Of a stretch of 64,000 bases of DNA, positions 2,246 through 11,434 are shown in pieces (position 1 is the stretch's first letter; the number at the start of each line of letters is the position of its first letter). The translations under genes and the position numbers were made by a program. This DNA comes from an uncultured SAR86 cluster bacterium (GTDB lineage Bacteria; Pseudomonadota; Gammaproteobacteria; Magnimaribacterales; D2472), in assembly GCA_902626385.1 (NCBI GenBank), contig CACOEZ010000001.1, positions 79,756 to 143,755 on the forward strand. Reading direction: 5' to 3'. The notes below the pieces were generated by a model. The model worked only from the letters and a program-made list of their open reading frames with translations, did no database searches and was not told the origin of the DNA.

Positions 2246-2710
2246 ATGAAAAACTTACTTATATTTATTATTTTTACTCCCGTAATTTTCTCAAATCAAA
2301 ATAGTCATTGTGATAATGTCGAACTATATTTTATAAATCCACCAGATGGACTAATAACAAATGCTAAAGAAATTAAGATTGAATTTGGATCCAAAAATGT
2401 AAAAGTTAGTCCTGCGGGAGTAATGGTAGATAATTCTGATCCTTGTTTAGTCAGCGGACATCATCACCTAATAATTAATAACGCATATGATGTAACTGTT
2501 AATAAAGTTGAACCGATACCATATGGAGAAAACATTCTTCATTTTGGTGGTGGTCAAACCGAAGCAGCTCTATCGCTTAAGCCTGGAAAATATGATTTAC
2601 AACTGGCCCTTGGAGATTATCAACACGTTCCAGTTAAGCCAGTTAATTCCGGAAGCAACTATCAACCACTTGTCTCAAAAAAAATAACAATTGAGATAAC
2701 AAGTGAATAA
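2246..2710 (+). CDS. secreted DUF4399-like protein
   Basis: N-terminal signal-like segment MKNLLIFIIFTPVIFS. The SGHHHLIIN motif matches what I recall for DUF4399. Starts 3 nt after the upstream gene. Confidence 0.5.
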   Translation: MKNLLIFIIFTPVIFSNQNSHCDNVELYFINPPDGLITNAKEIKIEFGSKNVKVSPAGVMVDNSDPCLVSGHHHLIINNAYDVTVNKVEPIPYGENILHFGGGQTEAALSLKPGKYDLQLALGDYQHVPVKPVNSGSNYQPLVSKKITIEITSE

Positions 2711-2926
2711 ATATTATTGATTTAACCCCCTTTTCTAATACAATAAATATACGAAAAATTACGAAAGGGGAAGCGTATCTTTTCATTAACCAAAAATATA
2801 TTATTTTTTTCTAGATTATCCATTGCGATAGCGTCAATATTTTTTTCAAAAAATGTTCTAGCTGAGAGTATTTTTATTGGTCCTGGCCCAGATGCTCACG
2901 AGAGATTACAAGAAGCTCTGATATTA

Positions 2927-4027
2927 ATGAATGAAGGGGATACATTAGTTATTGAGTCTGGATATTATGAATTTGAAGATGGGCTATCTCTTGATGTAAG
3001 TAATGTAACTATCAAGGGTGAAGGCATGGAAAAAACTATCCTTGATTTTAAAAATCAACAATCTGGTGCTCAAGGCTTTTTAGTCACCTCAGACAAGGTA
3101 ACACTTAGAGATTTTGCAATATTAGATGCAAAAGGAGATGCTCTAAAGGTTATAGGTTCTAATGGTATTAATATGATTAATCTCAGAACAGAATGGACTG
3201 GTGGTCCGAAAAGCACGAACGGAGCTTATGGTTTTTATCCAGTTGAATCTGAAGATGTTCTTATAGATGGTTGTGTTGCAATTGGAGCGTCCGATGCTGG
3301 TATATATGTTGGCCAGTCAAAAAATATAATTGTTAGAAATAGCATTGCTCAATATAACGTTGCTGGAATTGAAATTGAAAATTCATACTATGCTGATGTT
3401 TACAATAATTTGGCATCACATAATACAGCTGGAATATTAGTCTTTGACTTGCCAGACCTTCCTCAACAAGGAGGCCATCACATAAGAGTATTTGATAATA
3501 AATCAATTGATAACGATACAGATAATTTTGCACCTGAGGGAAACATAGTGGGAGAGGTGCCAAGAGGGACAGGTATCATAGTTATGGCAAATTCAGATGT
3601 TGAAATTTTCGATAACCTTATGAGTGGGAATGGAACAGTAAATTTGTCAATTGTTTCATACTCAGATGAGACAGACGATCCAAACTATTATCCTCATCCT
3701 AAAAGGATTCAAGTGCACAGCAATACTTATGGACCGAGTGGATTTGATCCAGATCTTGAGACAGGAGATTTGGCAAAAGCCCTTTATGAGATAAGTAATG
3801 GCAATATGCCTGACATATTTTGGGATGGCGTAGTTCCAATCTCACAAATGGTTTTTGGTCAGCCAGAAGATGAAAAGTTAATTATGGAAGAAGAAAATAA
3901 AGTTAGTTTTCTTACGATAAGCCCAATCAAATATATGTTGGGCTTCACAAATCCTACACGAACAGATAAAAAAGAATTTAAAGGGGTCATTAATCCACTG
4001 GAACCGATTGTTATAGACGGTATATAG
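2927..4027 (+). CDS. parallel beta-helix repeat protein (NosD/CASH-like); true start probably upstream, about 2777
   Basis: Stacked ~22-aa turns (AGIYVGQSKNIIVRNS / AGIEIENSYYADVYNN / AGILVFDLPD / GIIVMANSDVEIFDN) typical of right-handed beta-helices. 2927 is the first canonical ATG, but an in-frame signal peptide lies upstream (see findings). Confidence 0.7.
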   Translation: MNEGDTLVIESGYYEFEDGLSLDVSNVTIKGEGMEKTILDFKNQQSGAQGFLVTSDKVTLRDFAILDAKGDALKVIGSNGINMINLRTEWTGGPKSTNGAYGFYPVESEDVLIDGCVAIGASDAGIYVGQSKNIIVRNSIAQYNVAGIEIENSYYADVYNNLASHNTAGILVFDLPDLPQQGGHHIRVFDNKSIDNDTDNFAPEGNIVGEVPRGTGIIVMANSDVEIFDNLMSGNGTVNLSIVSYSDETDDPNYYPHPKRIQVHSNTYGPSGFDPDLETGDLAKALYEISNGNMPDIFWDGVVPISQMVFGQPEDEKLIMEEENKVSFLTISPIKYMLGFTNPTRTDKKEFKGVINPLEPIVIDGI

Positions 4028-4032
4028 GGATA

Positions 4033-5070
4033 ATGAAAAATACAGTTCAAATTTTGATAGTTCTTATGCTATGCATGAGATCTTTTGCCGTAAACGATAA
4101 CCTAATAATGGCAGAAACATTCCCAAAAAAATTATCTGATTTTGCATTTTTTTATGACAATTCTGCACAAGTGCCTCACGAAGATGTAATTCCATATGAA
4201 TTAATATCTACACTTTTTTCAGACTATTCATACAAACAAAGATGGGTTTACGTTCCAAATAATAAAAAAGCTAAATACAAAGAGAGCTGGGTTTTTGATT
4301 TCCCAATTGGATCTGCGCTTATAAAAACATTTTATTATCCTGTTGATGAAAGGAATCCTGAGTTAGGCAAAAATTTATTAGAAACTAGACTTTTATTAAG
4401 AAAAGAATCTGGGTGGGAAGCAGTCTCATATGCTTGGAATGATGAACAAACGGAAGCATTTAAAAAAGTGGCAGGCAAAACAATAAATGTCTCTTGGATA
4501 GACTTTATGGGTGAAGAAAAAGAAGTTCGTTACAGAGTCCCAAATGTCAATCAATGTAAGGAATGTCATGCAGCTAATGACAAAACAACTCCAATAGGAC
4601 CTAAAGCTAGAAATATTAACAAGGAGTTTACATATAAAGATGGAGAATTTAACCAATTAGCATACTGGATGGATAGACAAATAATCGATAATTATCCATT
4701 AGATCTGGTATCGCCTGTTGATTGGACAGATGAAAGTCAAAATATGAATGATAGGGTTAGATCTTATCTCGACGTAAATTGTGGGCATTGCCACTCACCT
4801 ACAGGAAATGCAAACTCTACAGGGCTTTATCTTCATTTAAATGAAACGAGAGATACTCATTTAGGAGTCTATAAAAAGCCAGTAGCTACCGGTCGAGGCA
4901 GTGGTGGATTAAAATATTCCATAGTTCCAGGCAAGCCAGACGAGTCTATTTTATTGCATAGAATGATATCAATGGATCCTGGTGTAATGATGCCAGAATC
5001 TGGAAGAGCTCTAACTCATGAAGAAGCAGTCGAAATGGTTAGGGAATGGATATTATTAATGGAAAATTAA
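4033..5070 (+). CDS. secreted protein with two CxxCH heme-binding-type motifs (partner of the beta-helix protein)
   Basis: Signal peptide MKNTVQILIVLMLCMRSFA. CKECH at nt 4555-4569 and CGHCH at nt 4780-4794. C-terminal LLHRM...GVMMPE resembles cytochrome-c-like domains. Starts 5 nt after the beta-helix gene. Confidence 0.6.
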   Translation: MKNTVQILIVLMLCMRSFAVNDNLIMAETFPKKLSDFAFFYDNSAQVPHEDVIPYELISTLFSDYSYKQRWVYVPNNKKAKYKESWVFDFPIGSALIKTFYYPVDERNPELGKNLLETRLLLRKESGWEAVSYAWNDEQTEAFKKVAGKTINVSWIDFMGEEKEVRYRVPNVNQCKECHAANDKTTPIGPKARNINKEFTYKDGEFNQLAYWMDRQIIDNYPLDLVSPVDWTDESQNMNDRVRSYLDVNCGHCHSPTGNANSTGLYLHLNETRDTHLGVYKKPVATGRGSGGLKYSIVPGKPDESILLHRMISMDPGVMMPESGRALTHEEAVEMVREWILLMEN

Positions 5071-5089
5071 TTTAAACACAATTAAGAGA

Positions 5090-5641
5090 ATGTATTTGAG
5101 ATATCTTTTATTTTTATTTTTTATTGTTTCTTGCGAGCCTCAAGAATCAAAGAACTCTTATCAAGCACCCTCTACTATTGAGAAAATTGAAACAAAAAAT
5201 CTGCTGGATAACTTAAATCAAGACAGACTAAATAAGATCCGTTATGTTCTTACAAATCGCTTTAATTTGAAAAATATTGATCTAAATAAAGGATTCAGTT
5301 TTTTTATAGACATATCTGAAATTGGTAATTACATAGATTGTGGATTTATGAACGAAGAGATATATGTAGATTATATCGAGAGAATTTTTGGCTCATCTTT
5401 AAAAGCAACAGTAAGACTAGATTTAGTTGAAGAAGATGATCTTTTCAACATTGAGGATATGTCAATAAATTATTTATTCCAATCCAAGGAAACTGGAACA
5501 AGATGGAAATTTAAAACAAACAAACCTAAAGAATTATTAGTAGGAAACCCAGTATATGATGATAATCCATATAGAATTTGTATGTCTGTTAATACTTTAG
5601 AAAAAGAAATCATCGAATTGATAAGAATGGAAAATGTATAA
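5090..5641 (+). CDS. hypothetical lipoprotein
   Basis: Lipobox FIVS-C after a hydrophobic N-terminus. No recognisable domain. Overlaps the next gene in ATGTATAA. Confidence 0.45.
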   Translation: MYLRYLLFLFFIVSCEPQESKNSYQAPSTIEKIETKNLLDNLNQDRLNKIRYVLTNRFNLKNIDLNKGFSFFIDISEIGNYIDCGFMNEEIYVDYIERIFGSSLKATVRLDLVEEDDLFNIEDMSINYLFQSKETGTRWKFKTNKPKELLVGNPVYDDNPYRICMSVNTLEKEIIELIRMENV

Positions 5642-6122
5642 AAATTTCAACATAGCCGCAGCTTTCTTTATTTTTTTCTTTGCTGAATTTTCAATCGCTC
5701 ACGAAGAAGATGAAATTTTAGGTTATTGGCTAACATCACAATCCATTGTTCTTGTTAGTAAATGCGATAGTCAATTATGCGCAACTATCGAACATATTTT
5801 TGTTGATGAGGGAACTGATCCAAAATCTATCTTAGATGAAAATAATAGAGATAAATCACTCAGAGAAAGACCAATCATAGGAATAAACTTGATAGAAGGA
5901 TTTGAATATCAGAAAGGCCTTAAAGAATATAACGGCGGTAAGATTTATGATCCTGGGAGAGGTAGAACATTTAAATCCAACATATACCTTTTAGATAATC
6001 ATAATTTAAAAGTTGAAGGATGCTTGATGAGATTATGTGGCGACGAGGAATGGCAAGCTCTAAAAGTGACATTTGACGAAGATGGTACAAGGTCGGCAGT
6101 TTTAAAATATGAAAAAAATTAA
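5634..6122 (+). CDS. secreted DUF2147-like protein
   Basis: Signal peptide ending SIA/HEE. The GYWLT...GGKIYDPGRGRTFKSNIYLLD...LKVEGC pattern matches my recollection of DUF2147. Confidence 0.55.
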   Translation: MYKNFNIAAAFFIFFFAEFSIAHEEDEILGYWLTSQSIVLVSKCDSQLCATIEHIFVDEGTDPKSILDENNRDKSLRERPIIGINLIEGFEYQKGLKEYNGGKIYDPGRGRTFKSNIYLLDNHNLKVEGCLMRLCGDEEWQALKVTFDEDGTRSAVLKYEKN

Positions 6123-7692: not shown

Positions 7693-7761
7693 AAGATTTG
7701 TATTAGTCATAATTCTTTCATAGAATTAAATTTGAATATGTTCATATTTGGGGAGAAAAAA

Positions 7762-8373
7762 ATGAATAATAAATTTTATAGTTTAATTGCACTTATCTTT
7801 GTTATGCATATCTCTGCAGGTCATCACGAGGGTGGACACATGCATGGTAATTCTGAGGCATGGGAAATTGAAACCTATACATCTTCTGCGCCAGATTTTA
7901 TTGGAGACTTTGCGACTGTAATTAGCGCAAGTGGGAAGGTTTTAAGAGAGGGCACTAATGGATGGACGTGCCTACCTTTTATTCCAATGCCAAAAATGGG
8001 ATTTAAATCTGCAAACGAAGCAGCTCCAGCTTGCGCTGATGCAAATGCTGTTGCCTGGGCAGATGCATATATTAATCAGACAACACCAAAAATTGAGAAT
8101 GATGGATGGATTTGGATGATTCATGGAGATACAGGCGTGGATAACTTTAGGCCTTATTCAGAAGGAGATAAGGAAAACACTGATCCAGAAGATTGGATTT
8201 ATTCAGGTTCACATTTAATGTTGATGCCTAAAGATCCTTCCTCTATGGATGGTATTTCTACAGATTTCACGACTGGCGCTCCTTATGTAATGATGAAAGG
8301 AACTCCTTTTGTGCATCTAATGATTCCTCTTGAGGGTTATTATGATTATCAACCTGAGTCTGCACCAAAATAA
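7762..8373 (+). CDS. secreted hypothetical protein with His-rich mature N-terminus
   Basis: ATG 7762 is preceded by GGGGAG (7751-7756). Signal peptide MNNKFYSLIALIFVMHISA followed by GHHEGGHMHG. No family recognised. Confidence 0.45.
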   Translation: MNNKFYSLIALIFVMHISAGHHEGGHMHGNSEAWEIETYTSSAPDFIGDFATVISASGKVLREGTNGWTCLPFIPMPKMGFKSANEAAPACADANAVAWADAYINQTTPKIENDGWIWMIHGDTGVDNFRPYSEGDKENTDPEDWIYSGSHLMLMPKDPSSMDGISTDFTTGAPYVMMKGTPFVHLMIPLEGYYDYQPESAPK

Positions 8374-9007: not shown

Positions 9008-9063
9008 ATTTATACTTCGTATCTATAGTAAAATAAGCCAAGTTTAGCTTGGGAGAGTTTTTT

Positions 9064-10437
9064 ATGAGCGATAAAGTTTACGAAGAAATTGTAGATAAGG
9101 CTGAAAAAATATCATTAAAGTGGAGATCCTTGCCTGCGCCGCAAAGAGGCGAGCTTATAAGGAAATTCGGAGAGGAATTAAGAAATAGTAAAGATGATCT
9201 TGCTAAAACTATTACTAAAGAGGCCAGAAAAGTAAAAACTGAGTCACTTGGAGAGGTGCAAGAAGCAATCGATATGTGCGATTTTGCTGTTGGATTGAGT
9301 AGACAGTTATATGGTTTAACGATGCCAAGCGAAAGACCAAATCATAGGCTACAAGAACTATGGCATCCCTTGGGTGTAGTTGGCTGCATAACAGCATTTA
9401 ACTTTCCAATGGCAGTGTTTGCATGGAATTTCTGTTTAGCCGCAGTCTGTGGCAACAGCGTAATATGGAAGCCCAGCCCCCATTCAAACCAATGTGCAAA
9501 AGGAATAAAAGGAGCATGGGACAAGGTTAGTGGCGAATATTCAGATCTTATTTTGATACTAGAAGGAGGCAATCAAGAAGCGGTTTCTTTGTGCGAAGAT
9601 AAAAGGATTTCTTTAATTTCAGCTACTGGCAGTACAAAAATGGGAAAAGAACTAGCACCAATTGTATCTGCTCGCTTAGGGAAACTTTTACTAGAGCTAG
9701 GTGGCAATAATGCTGCAATAGTATGTTCTTCAGCAAATCTAGATTTAACTATTAAGGGCATAGCATTCTCAGCATGTGGAACAACTGGTCAAAGATGTAC
9801 TTCATTGAGAAGATTGTTTGTTCATCAAGATATCTATGATGACTGTGTCTCAAGGCTGAGAGAGTGTTTTGATGAGCTAATTATTGGCTGCCCATCAAAA
9901 GATGATTCTCAAATTGGGCCTCTTATTTCAGAAGATAGCTATACCGCTATGCAGAAAATTTTAGAGTCTCTACGCGCAAAGAAAATAGAAGTGATCGGCG
10001 GCGAAAGATTGAATATTGAAAATCCAGATGAATTTTATGTTAAACCGGCTTTAGTTTTGGTGGATGAAATCCCAGATGAGATGCTTGAAGAAACGTTTGC
10101 ACCGATATTGTATGTTAAGAGTTTTTCAGATGTTAAAAATGCCATAGAAATGCAAAACAATGTAAGTCAAGGCCTGAGTAGTTCAATTTTTACAAATGAC
10201 ATTAGAGAGTCAGAATTATTTCTGAGTGAGTCCGGGAGTGATTGCGGAATTGCAAATGTAAATATTGGAACAAGTGGGGCTGAAATCGGTGGTGCTTTCG
10301 GCGGTGAGAAGGATACTGGTGGTGGCAGAGAGTCAGGATCAGACTCTTGGAAAAATTATATGAGAAGAGTAACTGCAACTGTAAATTATGGGGAAGACTT
10401 GCCACTTGCTCAAGGAGTTGAATTTGATGAAAAATAA
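9064..10437 (+). CDS. amaB: ALDH7-type aldehyde dehydrogenase (alpha-aminoadipic semialdehyde / piperideine-6-carboxylate dehydrogenase)
   Basis: ELGGNNA and GTTGQRCTS catalytic motifs. The C-terminal third is nearly colinear with antiquitin as I remember it (ETFAPILYV...QGLSSSIFT...GSDCGI.NVNI.TSGAEIGGAFGGEK.TGGGRESGSD.WK.YMRR...LPLAQG). ATG 9064 follows GGGAGAG. Confidence 0.85.
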   Translation: MSDKVYEEIVDKAEKISLKWRSLPAPQRGELIRKFGEELRNSKDDLAKTITKEARKVKTESLGEVQEAIDMCDFAVGLSRQLYGLTMPSERPNHRLQELWHPLGVVGCITAFNFPMAVFAWNFCLAAVCGNSVIWKPSPHSNQCAKGIKGAWDKVSGEYSDLILILEGGNQEAVSLCEDKRISLISATGSTKMGKELAPIVSARLGKLLLELGGNNAAIVCSSANLDLTIKGIAFSACGTTGQRCTSLRRLFVHQDIYDDCVSRLRECFDELIIGCPSKDDSQIGPLISEDSYTAMQKILESLRAKKIEVIGGERLNIENPDEFYVKPALVLVDEIPDEMLEETFAPILYVKSFSDVKNAIEMQNNVSQGLSSSIFTNDIRESELFLSESGSDCGIANVNIGTSGAEIGGAFGGEKDTGGGRESGSDSWKNYMRRVTATVNYGEDLPLAQGVEFDEK

Positions 10438-11434
10438 GGTTGCAATTGTTGGAAGCGGTAACATTGGCTGGGCTTTGAGAAAGCTTCTCCAAGATGATTA
10501 TGATATTTCACAAGGTGATATCTTAGACGGATTAGATGCAACTGATTCTAGTCAAGTTGAGAAATTTTTAGTCGGACATGATGCAGTAATTTCAGCAGGC
10601 CCTTATGCGGTCAATAAAAATATAGCAAAAGTAGCAGCAGAAAAAAACATTGGATACTTTGACCTTACGGAAGATGTTGATACAACAGAATTTATTAAAG
10701 AACTTAAATCAGAGAGTGTTCTTATGCCACAATGCGGTCTCGCACCAGGCGCTATTAATATTTGTGCTGCTAGTATGATGGAAGAGTTTGATGATGTAAA
10801 AGAAGTGCTTATGAGGGTAGGAGCATTACCAAGATTTACAACAAATGAAATGAGCTACTATCTAAGCTGGTCAACAAACGGCTTAATAAATGAATATTGC
10901 AATGAAGCTGACGCAATATATGAAGGTAAGCCAATAAAAGTTATGCCATTAGAAGGATCTGAGAAACTTGTAATTGAGGGCGAAAGCTTTGAAGCTTTTA
11001 ATACAAGTGGTGGTTGTGCCACCATGTGTGAAACATACGCGGATAAGGTTGAAAATTTAACTTACAAAACCATAAGGTATCCAGGACATTTAAATCATAT
11101 GAAATTTTTATTTAATGATTTACATCTTAAAAAGAATAAAGAAATTTTGGAGAAGCTTTTTGATAAGGAAGTACCTAGAACCAAAAATGATGTAATTATA
11201 TTTTTTGTAAAAGTCATTGGCATGATTGATGGCGTTCTCCAAGAAAAAACTTATTTAAGAAAGATTTATGGTGATGACAAATATAGTGCAATTCAACTTA
11301 CAACAGCCTCAGGAGTATGTAGTGTGCTTAAAATGTTCCTTGATGGAAAGATATCGTCAAAAGGTTTTACAAAACAAGAATCATTATCTTGGAATGACTT
11401 TTTAGATAATAAATTCGGTCAAGTATATAAATAA
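10427..11434 (+). CDS. saccharopine dehydrogenase family oxidoreductase (possible lysine 6-dehydrogenase)
   Basis: Rossmann start MKNKVAIVGSGNIG. Sacchrp_dh-like length. ATG 10427 overlaps the amaB stop by 11 nt. Confidence 0.65.
   Translation: MKNKVAIVGSGNIGWALRKLLQDDYDISQGDILDGLDATDSSQVEKFLVGHDAVISAGPYAVNKNIAKVAAEKNIGYFDLTEDVDTTEFIKELKSESVLMPQCGLAPGAINICAASMMEEFDDVKEVLMRVGALPRFTTNEMSYYLSWSTNGLINEYCNEADAIYEGKPIKVMPLEGSEKLVIEGESFEAFNTSGGCATMCETYADKVENLTYKTIRYPGHLNHMKFLFNDLHLKKNKEILEKLFDKEVPRTKNDVIIFFVKVIGMIDGVLQEKTYLRKIYGDDKYSAIQLTTASGVCSVLKMFLDGKISSKGFTKQESLSWNDFLDNKFGQVYK

Follow-up and report, generated by a model that had tools for sequence, protein, structure and literature searches.

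A two-gene module, encoding an exported beta-helix protein and an exported diheme cytochrome, is very probably the only functional unit within a five-gene run of an uncultured SAR86 cluster bacterium. The run occupies positions 2246–6122, on the + strand, of a 64,000-nucleotide (nt) stretch of contig CACOEZ010000001.1 (GenBank assembly GCA_902626385.1, positions 79,756 to 143,755 of the forward strand), hereafter the window; an earlier reading of the sequence alone had proposed the five genes as a single undescribed extracytoplasmic system. The two genes that we retain, both on the + strand, encode a right-handed parallel beta-helix protein of the TIGR03805 family (2777..4027) and, after a 5-nt gap, a c-type cytochrome of 345 amino acids (aa) belonging to the TIGR03806/SO2930 family (4033..5070). 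Judged by its profile matches, the pair is a plain member of a catalogued, uncharacterized family. Our analysis adds to that catalog entry a unit of two genes in place of five, the swapping of carbohydrate-linked partners by the cytochrome, a residue-level picture of both proteins, and a conserved non-canonical start codon. The explanation we prefer, and hold tentatively, is that the pair forms a periplasmic carbohydrate-linked redox enzyme, built as a two-subunit hemoprotein.

Using an alignment of diverse cytochromes, we fetched 80 loci from one-genome-per-species contigs representing at least six phyla; the sample takes in SAR86, SAR92, Caulobacterales, Sphingomonadales, Kordiimonas, Rhizobiaceae, Hyphomonadaceae, many Bacteroidota, Planctomycetota, Binatia, and Marinimicrobia. 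The closest loci come from SAR86 single-cell genomes and metagenome-assembled genomes (MAGs), whose cytochromes are 77–83% identical to that of the window. Once open reading frame (ORF) calls at high-GC loci had been corrected, ~69 of the 78 non-truncated loci showed the beta-helix gene either immediately preceding the cytochrome gene on the same strand or fused to it, and this pairing spans Gamma- and Alphaproteobacteria, Bacteroidota, Planctomycetota, Binatia, and Marinimicrobia. The two genes are closely spaced (median gap of −2.5 nt across 60 loci), and they are fused in 21 of 150 representatives of 50%-identity clusters, always in the order beta-helix then cytochrome, with linkers of 6–87 aa. 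The conservation of their adjacency, which the sequence-only reading had named as the check to be made, is thus borne out. Nothing comparable emerged from the surrounding genes: a Pfam census of the two genes on either side of the pair (104 upstream and 108 downstream proteins from ~55 loci) found no family in more than four, BLAST clustering of the neighbors recovered no further recurring family, and the next largest neighbor cluster was a histidine kinase present at nine loci in scattered positions. Because the pair is conserved and no other neighbor recurs, we treat it as a two-gene module rather than a five-gene system.

At two of these loci, numbered L042 and L072 in our set, both genes are present with another gene inserted between them. 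In L042, from a Lewinellaceae MAG, the intervening gene (9017–9946) encodes a xylose-isomerase-like TIM-barrel protein (PF01261) with an apparent twin-arginine translocation (Tat)-type (RRSF) N-terminus. In L072, from a Cytophagales MAG, a gene that we judged by eye to be TraB/GumN-like separates the cytochrome from the beta-helix gene, and the cytochrome gene itself is split into ORFs of 90 and 269 aa (9772–10885), which may reflect a pseudogene or an assembly error. On a Novosphingobium plasmid (NZ_CP039697.1, 614345–633409; L086), the NCBI Prokaryotic Genome Annotation Pipeline (PGAP) gives the pair the same TIGR03805/TIGR03806 names; there the pair sits between TonB-dependent receptor genes, one of them split by an IS5 element. 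Receptors of this kind also flank the pair in L018, L034, L037, and L049; together with L086, these loci represent one member of the Bacteroidota and otherwise Alphaproteobacteria.

Both window proteins score above the cut-offs of their family profiles. The beta-helix protein matches TIGR03805 (beta_helix_1) at 416.6 bits (cut-off 141.5) over profile positions 1–314 of 314, and the cytochrome matches TIGR03806 at 367.5 bits (cut-off 313.3) over positions 2–312 of 314, so that the two-gene TIGRFAMs module named in the earlier reading, a parallel beta-helix repeat protein next to an HNE_0200 family member, is the one present here. In Pfam, the beta-helix protein matches the generic Beta_helix and NosD families (PF05048, 36.7 bits over residues 125–221), in agreement with its earlier description as NosD/CASH-like. 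Its AlphaFold2 model (predicted local distance difference test, pLDDT, 88.5; predicted TM-score, pTM, 0.88) consists of regular three-strand rungs over approximately residues 55–315. A Foldseek search of the PDB with this model recovered polysaccharide lyases (RbmB, PL6, Pel9A), mannuronan C5-epimerases (AlgE4, AlgE6), hydrolases of GH28, GH87, and GH110, and phage tailspikes, with E-values down to 1.5e-7, identities of at most 18%, and TM-scores of at most 0.55. Among proteins of known structure, phage phi29 gp12 gave the best profile match (E 8.4e-5), the alignment spanning the conserved acidic rungs GASDAGIYVGQS / NVAGIEIENS; phmmer found no PDB match. No characterized family of carbohydrate-active enzymes (CAZymes), whether of lyases, hydrolases, or epimerases, includes the protein by sequence, and its link with the cytochrome is upheld.

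Across 60 beta-helix sequences from several phyla, W140, N148, Y151, Y154, D173, Y177, Q180, S181, E199, E201, N202, and D224, together with an Asn ladder, are invariant or nearly so, and no column of Cys, His, or Met is invariant. The most conserved rungs (3194..3448, + strand, from W140 to D224) are presumed to form the substrate groove, their residues bearing the signature of a carbohydrate-type groove and not that of a copper or heme site. The motif YG(L/F)YP also occurs in the protein, and we take it to resemble the AlgE4 catalytic motif YGFDPH. Separately, the homologs from Bacteroidota carry two Cys pairs (window residues 158/166 and 369/403), probably disulfides. Neither pair is present in the proteins of SAR86, Alphaproteobacteria, or planctomycetes, and C166 is the only Cys of the window protein.

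The beta-helix gene appears to start at a non-canonical codon. Read from the ATG at 2927 (366 aa), the ORF has no signal peptide. The frame remains open upstream as far as a TAA at 2744–46, and this upstream portion encodes a good signal peptide, FSLTKNILFFSRLSIAIASIFFSKNVLA/ES; we assessed its n-, h-, and c-regions visually and with a hydrophobicity score. Between the TAA and the signal peptide there is no ATG, GTG, or TTG. Within this start region (2744..2779, + strand), an ATC at 2777–79 stands 5 nt past the Shine-Dalgarno-like AGGGGA at 2766–71, and it appears to be the only plausible start. The same layout, GGGG(A) followed after 5–6 nt by ATT/ATC and then by TTT TCA/TTA, is common to all five of the closest relatives examined (L001 8711–8750, L002 8679–8760, L082 4709–4750, L084 731–745, and L085 600–615). 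L084 and L085 also have an in-frame TAG immediately 5′ of the GGG, so no start further upstream is possible there. More distant SAR86 relatives use an ATG start. A protein of 416 aa, as read from ATC 2777, fits the homolog lengths of 390–430 aa; gene callers shorten the beta-helix proteins of this SAR86 sub-lineage to an internal TTG, GTG, or ATG. The beta-helix protein has a signal peptide only if translation starts at ATC 2777, which qualifies the earlier statement that all five proteins carry export signals: all of them do look exported, the beta-helix protein from the ATC at 2777 and not from the ATG at 2927.

The cytochrome contains the two CxxCH motifs reported earlier, CKECH at 4555..4569 (C175, C178, H179; residues 175–179) and CGHCH at 4780..4794 (C250, H252, C253, H254; residues 250–254), both encoded on the + strand, and covalent attachment of heme c is predicted at each. 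Among 227 family sequences, the Cys, Cys, and His positions of both motifs are conserved at 100%, as are E117 and W128, and T118, R119, S305, R310, M320, and P321 are conserved at 99%. The AlphaFold2 model (pLDDT 93.8, pTM 0.90) places a beta-rich domain at approximately residues 40–170, followed by a helix bearing C175xxC178H179 and then by a helical class-I-like domain bearing C250xxC253H254, with helices on both sides of the CGHCH motif. In the same alignment, M320 is the sole conserved Met, and His residues outside the two CxxCH motifs reach at most 80% conservation. The M320–P321 pair (4990..4995, + strand) falls at the end of a weak PSCyt1 match spanning residues 289–321. On the strength of these two features, the only conserved Met and its position at the end of the PSCyt1 match, we assign M320 to heme 2, which would make this heme probably of the His/Met type with Met320 as axial ligand. 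That assignment in turn leaves heme 1 without a conserved Met or His as sixth ligand.

Comparisons of the cytochrome with solved structures and characterized families gave weak matches. Foldseek found no significant solved relative of the model; its top match was a cytochrome P460 or c′-beta (6hiu_A; E 0.017, probability 0.72, TM-score 0.35). This agrees with weak matches to the Pfam family Cytochrome_P460 (PF16694), which the window protein matches at 17.2 bits, below the cut-off of 27, and which is matched by 6 of 65 family members, the best at E 5.4e-5. As a lead and not a demonstration, these matches suggest that the heme 1 domain may be weakly P460-like. At E ≤0.01, neither the window protein nor any of the 65 family members matched CCP_MauG (PF03150). 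None of the beta-helix, cytochrome, DUF4399, and DUF2147 proteins had a sequence match in the PDB, and profile searches of the PDB returned generic cytochrome c and beta-helix matches only.

The cytochrome module also occurs with other partners, all of them carbohydrate-related by their domain assignments. Sixteen clusters of ~1,000-aa proteins (P0264, P0391–P0404, and P0461) combine an N-terminal glucose/sorbosone dehydrogenase domain (GSDH, PF07995; pyrroloquinoline quinone (PQQ)-type fold) with a complete TIGR03806 module. At L065 (9944–12952), from a Chitinophaga MAG, a cytochrome gene is followed by a GSDH gene with a type-9 secretion tail. At L087 (6637–13107), a 2,157-aa Pseudoalteromonas protein strings together PKD, three copies of the starch-binding CBM26, GSDH, a TIGR03806-like module (E 2.9e-51, both CxxCH motifs present), Big_2, a class-I cytochrome c, and PSD domains, with a DUF1552 gene next downstream. 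A third, class-I heme domain follows the TIGR03806 module in five representatives. The GSDH-linked modules keep all core residues; what differs is the K281-x-P283-x-A285 loop (window 4873–4887), which is conserved in beta-helix-partnered modules and changed or deleted in the GSDH-linked ones, and which may be a partner-specific contact with the beta-helix.

A redox role for the pair, as suggested in the earlier reading, is plausible. We infer a complex, its carbohydrate substrate, and where and to what end electrons would move, as follows. The beta-helix and cytochrome would be co-translated and form a periplasmic two-subunit hemoprotein, in which the beta-helix subunit would hold, and possibly transform, a carbohydrate-type substrate in its groove, where Tyr, Asp, Glu, Gln, and Asn side chains are invariant. 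Redox chemistry would fall to the cytochrome subunit: heme 1, which lacks a conserved sixth ligand and is carried on the beta-rich domain with its invariant Glu117 and Trp128, would face the beta-helix partner, and the His/Met heme 2 would exchange electrons, in one direction or the other, with soluble carriers of the periplasm and so with the respiratory chain. The link to carbohydrates draws on the Foldseek matches of the beta-helix, the profile match to phi29 gp12, the GSDH fusions, the gene pair of L065, the CBM26-bearing protein, and the xylose-isomerase-like gene of L042. Several observations weigh against this explanation. The beta-helix has no recognizable redox cofactor site, and its likeness to carbohydrate-active enzymes lies at the level of fold only, given the low identities and TM-scores cited above. 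Our Pfam censuses of flanking genes revealed no recurring carbohydrate-utilization genes near the pair, and TonB-dependent receptors lie within 3 kb of it in only 4 of 72 loci. Finally, polar residues are heavily conserved in the beta domain of the cytochrome, as would be expected of a catalytic heme more than of a mere conduit for electrons.

This last point leads to a different division of labor, in which the cytochrome is itself the enzyme. Heme 1 would be five-coordinate and catalytic, P460/c′-beta-like or peroxidase-like, and fed by the His/Met heme 2, as in diheme peroxidases and MauG; its target could be a small molecule (H2O2, NO, or hydroxylamine), a substrate presented by the beta-helix, or residues of the partner itself in a MauG/MbnH-type maturation. 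In its favor, heme 1 lacks a conserved sixth ligand, and Glu117 and Trp128 in the beta domain are completely conserved, with Thr118 and Arg119 at 99%; Trp140, Tyr151, Tyr154, and Tyr177, invariant in the beta-helix, could be oxidation targets. The P460-type matches point the same way, both the best Foldseek match of the model and the Pfam matches in the 6 family members, but the window protein scores below the Pfam cut-off, the TM-score is only 0.35, and no CCP_MauG match supports the peroxidase variant. Moreover, the module takes, in the GSDH fusions, the position of the electron-acceptor cytochrome domain of quinohemoproteins, and the extra class-I heme domain seen in some members is typical of electron-transfer chains. 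On balance, we consider a catalytic heme 1 rather unlikely, though the strongest of the rival readings.

Less probable again, and in our estimate clearly unlikely, is a combination of both ideas, whereby an open-coordination P460-like c-heme would dock on the beta-helix groove and oxidize the bound glycan or sugar acid directly, with the second heme leading to the respiratory chain. Should this be true, the pair would represent an unrecognized class of periplasmic heme enzymes and offer a cofactor-light route from dissolved polysaccharide to respiration in SAR86 and in other abundant marine and soil heterotrophs.

The sequence-only reading had also raised metal handling, on the analogy of NosD. 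In a NosD-like system for metal or sulfur handling, the beta-helix would bind copper or another metal, and the cytochrome would set the redox state of that metal. The partial Pfam NosD match and the periplasmic location accord with this proposal, as does the proximity, in this lineage, of the DUF4399 protein with its HHH motif and of a His-rich exported protein (7732–8373). It fares poorly on the more specific evidence. The dedicated NosD profile TIGR04247 scores 35.3 bits against a cut-off of 300, the beta-helix alignment offers no invariant Cys, His, or Met, no nosF/nosY-type ATP-binding cassette (ABC) transporter genes are adjacent and no such family recurs in other loci, and DUF4399 is unlinked to the pair outside close SAR86 relatives. 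We therefore regard a NosD-like role as very unlikely.

Still more improbable is that the beta-helix is a conventional secreted enzyme acting on polysaccharides, be it a lyase, a hydrolase, or an epimerase, and that the cytochrome is functionally unrelated to it. The Foldseek matches to enzymes of these three kinds and the acidic and aromatic groove would suit it, but without a joint function it is difficult to account for genes that adjoin in at least six phyla and are repeatedly fused, and the beta-helix protein belongs by sequence to no characterized CAZyme family. The idea that all five genes form one operon-encoded envelope system is the least credible of all: the genes are co-directional, tightly spaced, and all apparently exported, and the order DUF4399, beta-helix, cytochrome is retained in seven close relatives, but such spacing is the genome background, the three extra genes are missing around the pair in L004 (cytochrome 77% identical) and in all more distant loci, L001 lacks the lipoprotein gene and L082 and L083 lack DUF2147, the largest gap among the five genes (66 nt, 2711–2776) parts DUF4399 from the beta-helix gene, and DUF2147 is lipocalin-like and linked elsewhere to lipid carriage.

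The three genes set aside are, on the comparison of loci, unrelated envelope proteins that neighbor the pair only in this SAR86 sub-lineage, and the family assignments made for them earlier hold. The first (2246..2710, + strand) encodes an exported DUF4399 protein (PF14347, E 5.8e-23, 81.5 bits against a cut-off of 28). Downstream of the pair lie a small lipoprotein (5090..5641, + strand), with the lipobox FIVSC and no Pfam or NCBIfam match, and an exported DUF2147 protein (5634..6122, + strand; PF09917, E 3.3e-23, 82.9 bits against a cut-off of 27), whose ATG at 5634 overlaps the lipoprotein stop codon, as had been observed. The DUF2147 family has been described as lipocalin-like from the crystal structure of HP1028 and has been linked to lipid carriage (bioRxiv 10.1101/2025.07.29.667474). 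DUF4399, the lipoprotein, DUF2147, and a neighboring hydroxylase adjoin the pair only in SAR86 relatives with cytochromes at least 81% identical (L001–L003 and L082–L085); in L004, all four are already gone. Even among relatives with cytochromes more than 80% identical, the lipoprotein and DUF2147 genes each come and go; compared with L001, L082, and L083, the last two of which lack the cupin gene as well as DUF2147, the region just downstream of the pair (5090–6122) is a small hot spot of gene-content variation.

The arrangement of the five genes reflects the window at large. Five consecutive, nearly abutting + strand genes had been reported, and the ORFs are indeed at these positions; their packing, however, is the norm for a window that is 95% coding, with same-strand gaps of median 1 nt, 81% of them no longer than 20 nt, a spacing typical of streamlined genomes. 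The five genes sit within a co-directional run of at least 15 genes, and the genes that flank the five encode a fatty-acid hydroxylase (OlsE-like), a cupin, a beta-lactamase-fold protein, and a family-less exported protein; since tight co-directional packing is the background of the window, it sets the five-gene region apart in no way. By a crude hydrophobicity test, signal-peptide-like ORFs number 20 of the 74 in the window and seven of the eight between 2246 and 8373. Simple arithmetic from the base rate indicates that a run of five exported ORFs is expected somewhere in the window about one time in 10, and we read the run as a mildly unusual local enrichment of envelope proteins. Window scans found promoter-like and terminator-like sites at chance levels (36 against 33 expected and 3 against 3.7 expected, respectively), and the 64 kb contain no tRNA gene and no Rfam family at gathering thresholds. 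As a side observation, the ORF at 7732–8373 encodes an exported protein of 203–213 aa with a His-rich stretch, GHHEGGHMHG, directly after the signal peptide; it matches no Pfam or NCBIfam family, is kept as a 203-aa gene in L001, L082, and L084, and may bind metal.

The literature that we searched contained no functional study of the TIGR03805/TIGR03806 pair or of DUF4399, Shewanella papers merely listing SO_2930 and SO_2931 among cytochromes of unknown role, and no solved structure in the PDB matches the proteins of these two families by sequence. The cytochrome family is nonetheless large, with 6,380 representatives of 50%-identity clusters at E ≤0.001, and the cytochrome is abundant in SAR86 ocean metagenomes, where single 90%-identity clusters hold hundreds of sequences; among redox proteins outside the cytoplasm, the pair ranks with the larger ‘known unknowns’. 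To a specialist, its presence in SAR86 is no surprise; what has changed is that its function is now more testable in a very abundant marine lineage. The range of useful experiments is narrowed by three results, namely the two-gene unit, the sharing of the module with PQQ-type sugar dehydrogenases (including one with starch-binding modules), and a groove that resembles those of carbohydrate enzymes and is free of metal ligands. If the carbohydrate-linked redox explanation is true, the pair would constitute a new enzyme type in marine carbon turnover; otherwise, it is an ordinary instance of a catalogued family.

Set beside known systems, the pair shares with NosD of the NosDFY machinery for nitrous-oxide-reductase maturation a periplasmic right-handed beta-helix and a partial Pfam match; it differs in its profile score (35 against a cut-off of 300), in having neither ABC partners nor nosZ or nosL adjacent, and in the absence of conserved metal-type ligands. 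The carbohydrate-active and related beta-helices (RbmB, PL6, AlgE4, GH28/GH87/GH110, and phi29 gp12) have in common with it the overall fold and the placement of acidic and aromatic residues on consecutive rungs, although none has an obligatory cytochrome partner and the window protein is at most 18% identical to them. Diheme cytochrome c peroxidases, MauG, and MbnH resemble the window cytochrome in combining one His/Met heme with one heme that lacks a conserved sixth ligand, in an invariant Trp, and in often being paired with a partner protein; the window cytochrome, however, has another fold and no CCP_MauG sequence match. Cytochromes P460 and c′-beta provide the best, albeit weak, fold and Pfam matches (residues ~65–184) and likewise have a beta-sheet domain ending in CxxCH, whereas the window scores lie below thresholds and the window domain comes together with a class-I-like domain for a second heme and with a beta-helix partner. 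With the quinohemoprotein sugar dehydrogenases, which join a PQQ/GSDH domain to a cytochrome domain and sometimes to carbohydrate-binding modules (CBMs), we propose a shared logic of a catalytic domain followed by a heme relay, the partner in the window being a beta-helix without a known redox cofactor and not a PQQ beta-propeller. The closest likeness is to the catalogued TIGR03805 plus TIGR03806 (HNE_0200/SO2930) pair itself: the window proteins score above both cut-offs, are adjacent and in the same order, and appear to be exported, as expected of a plain member of that family.

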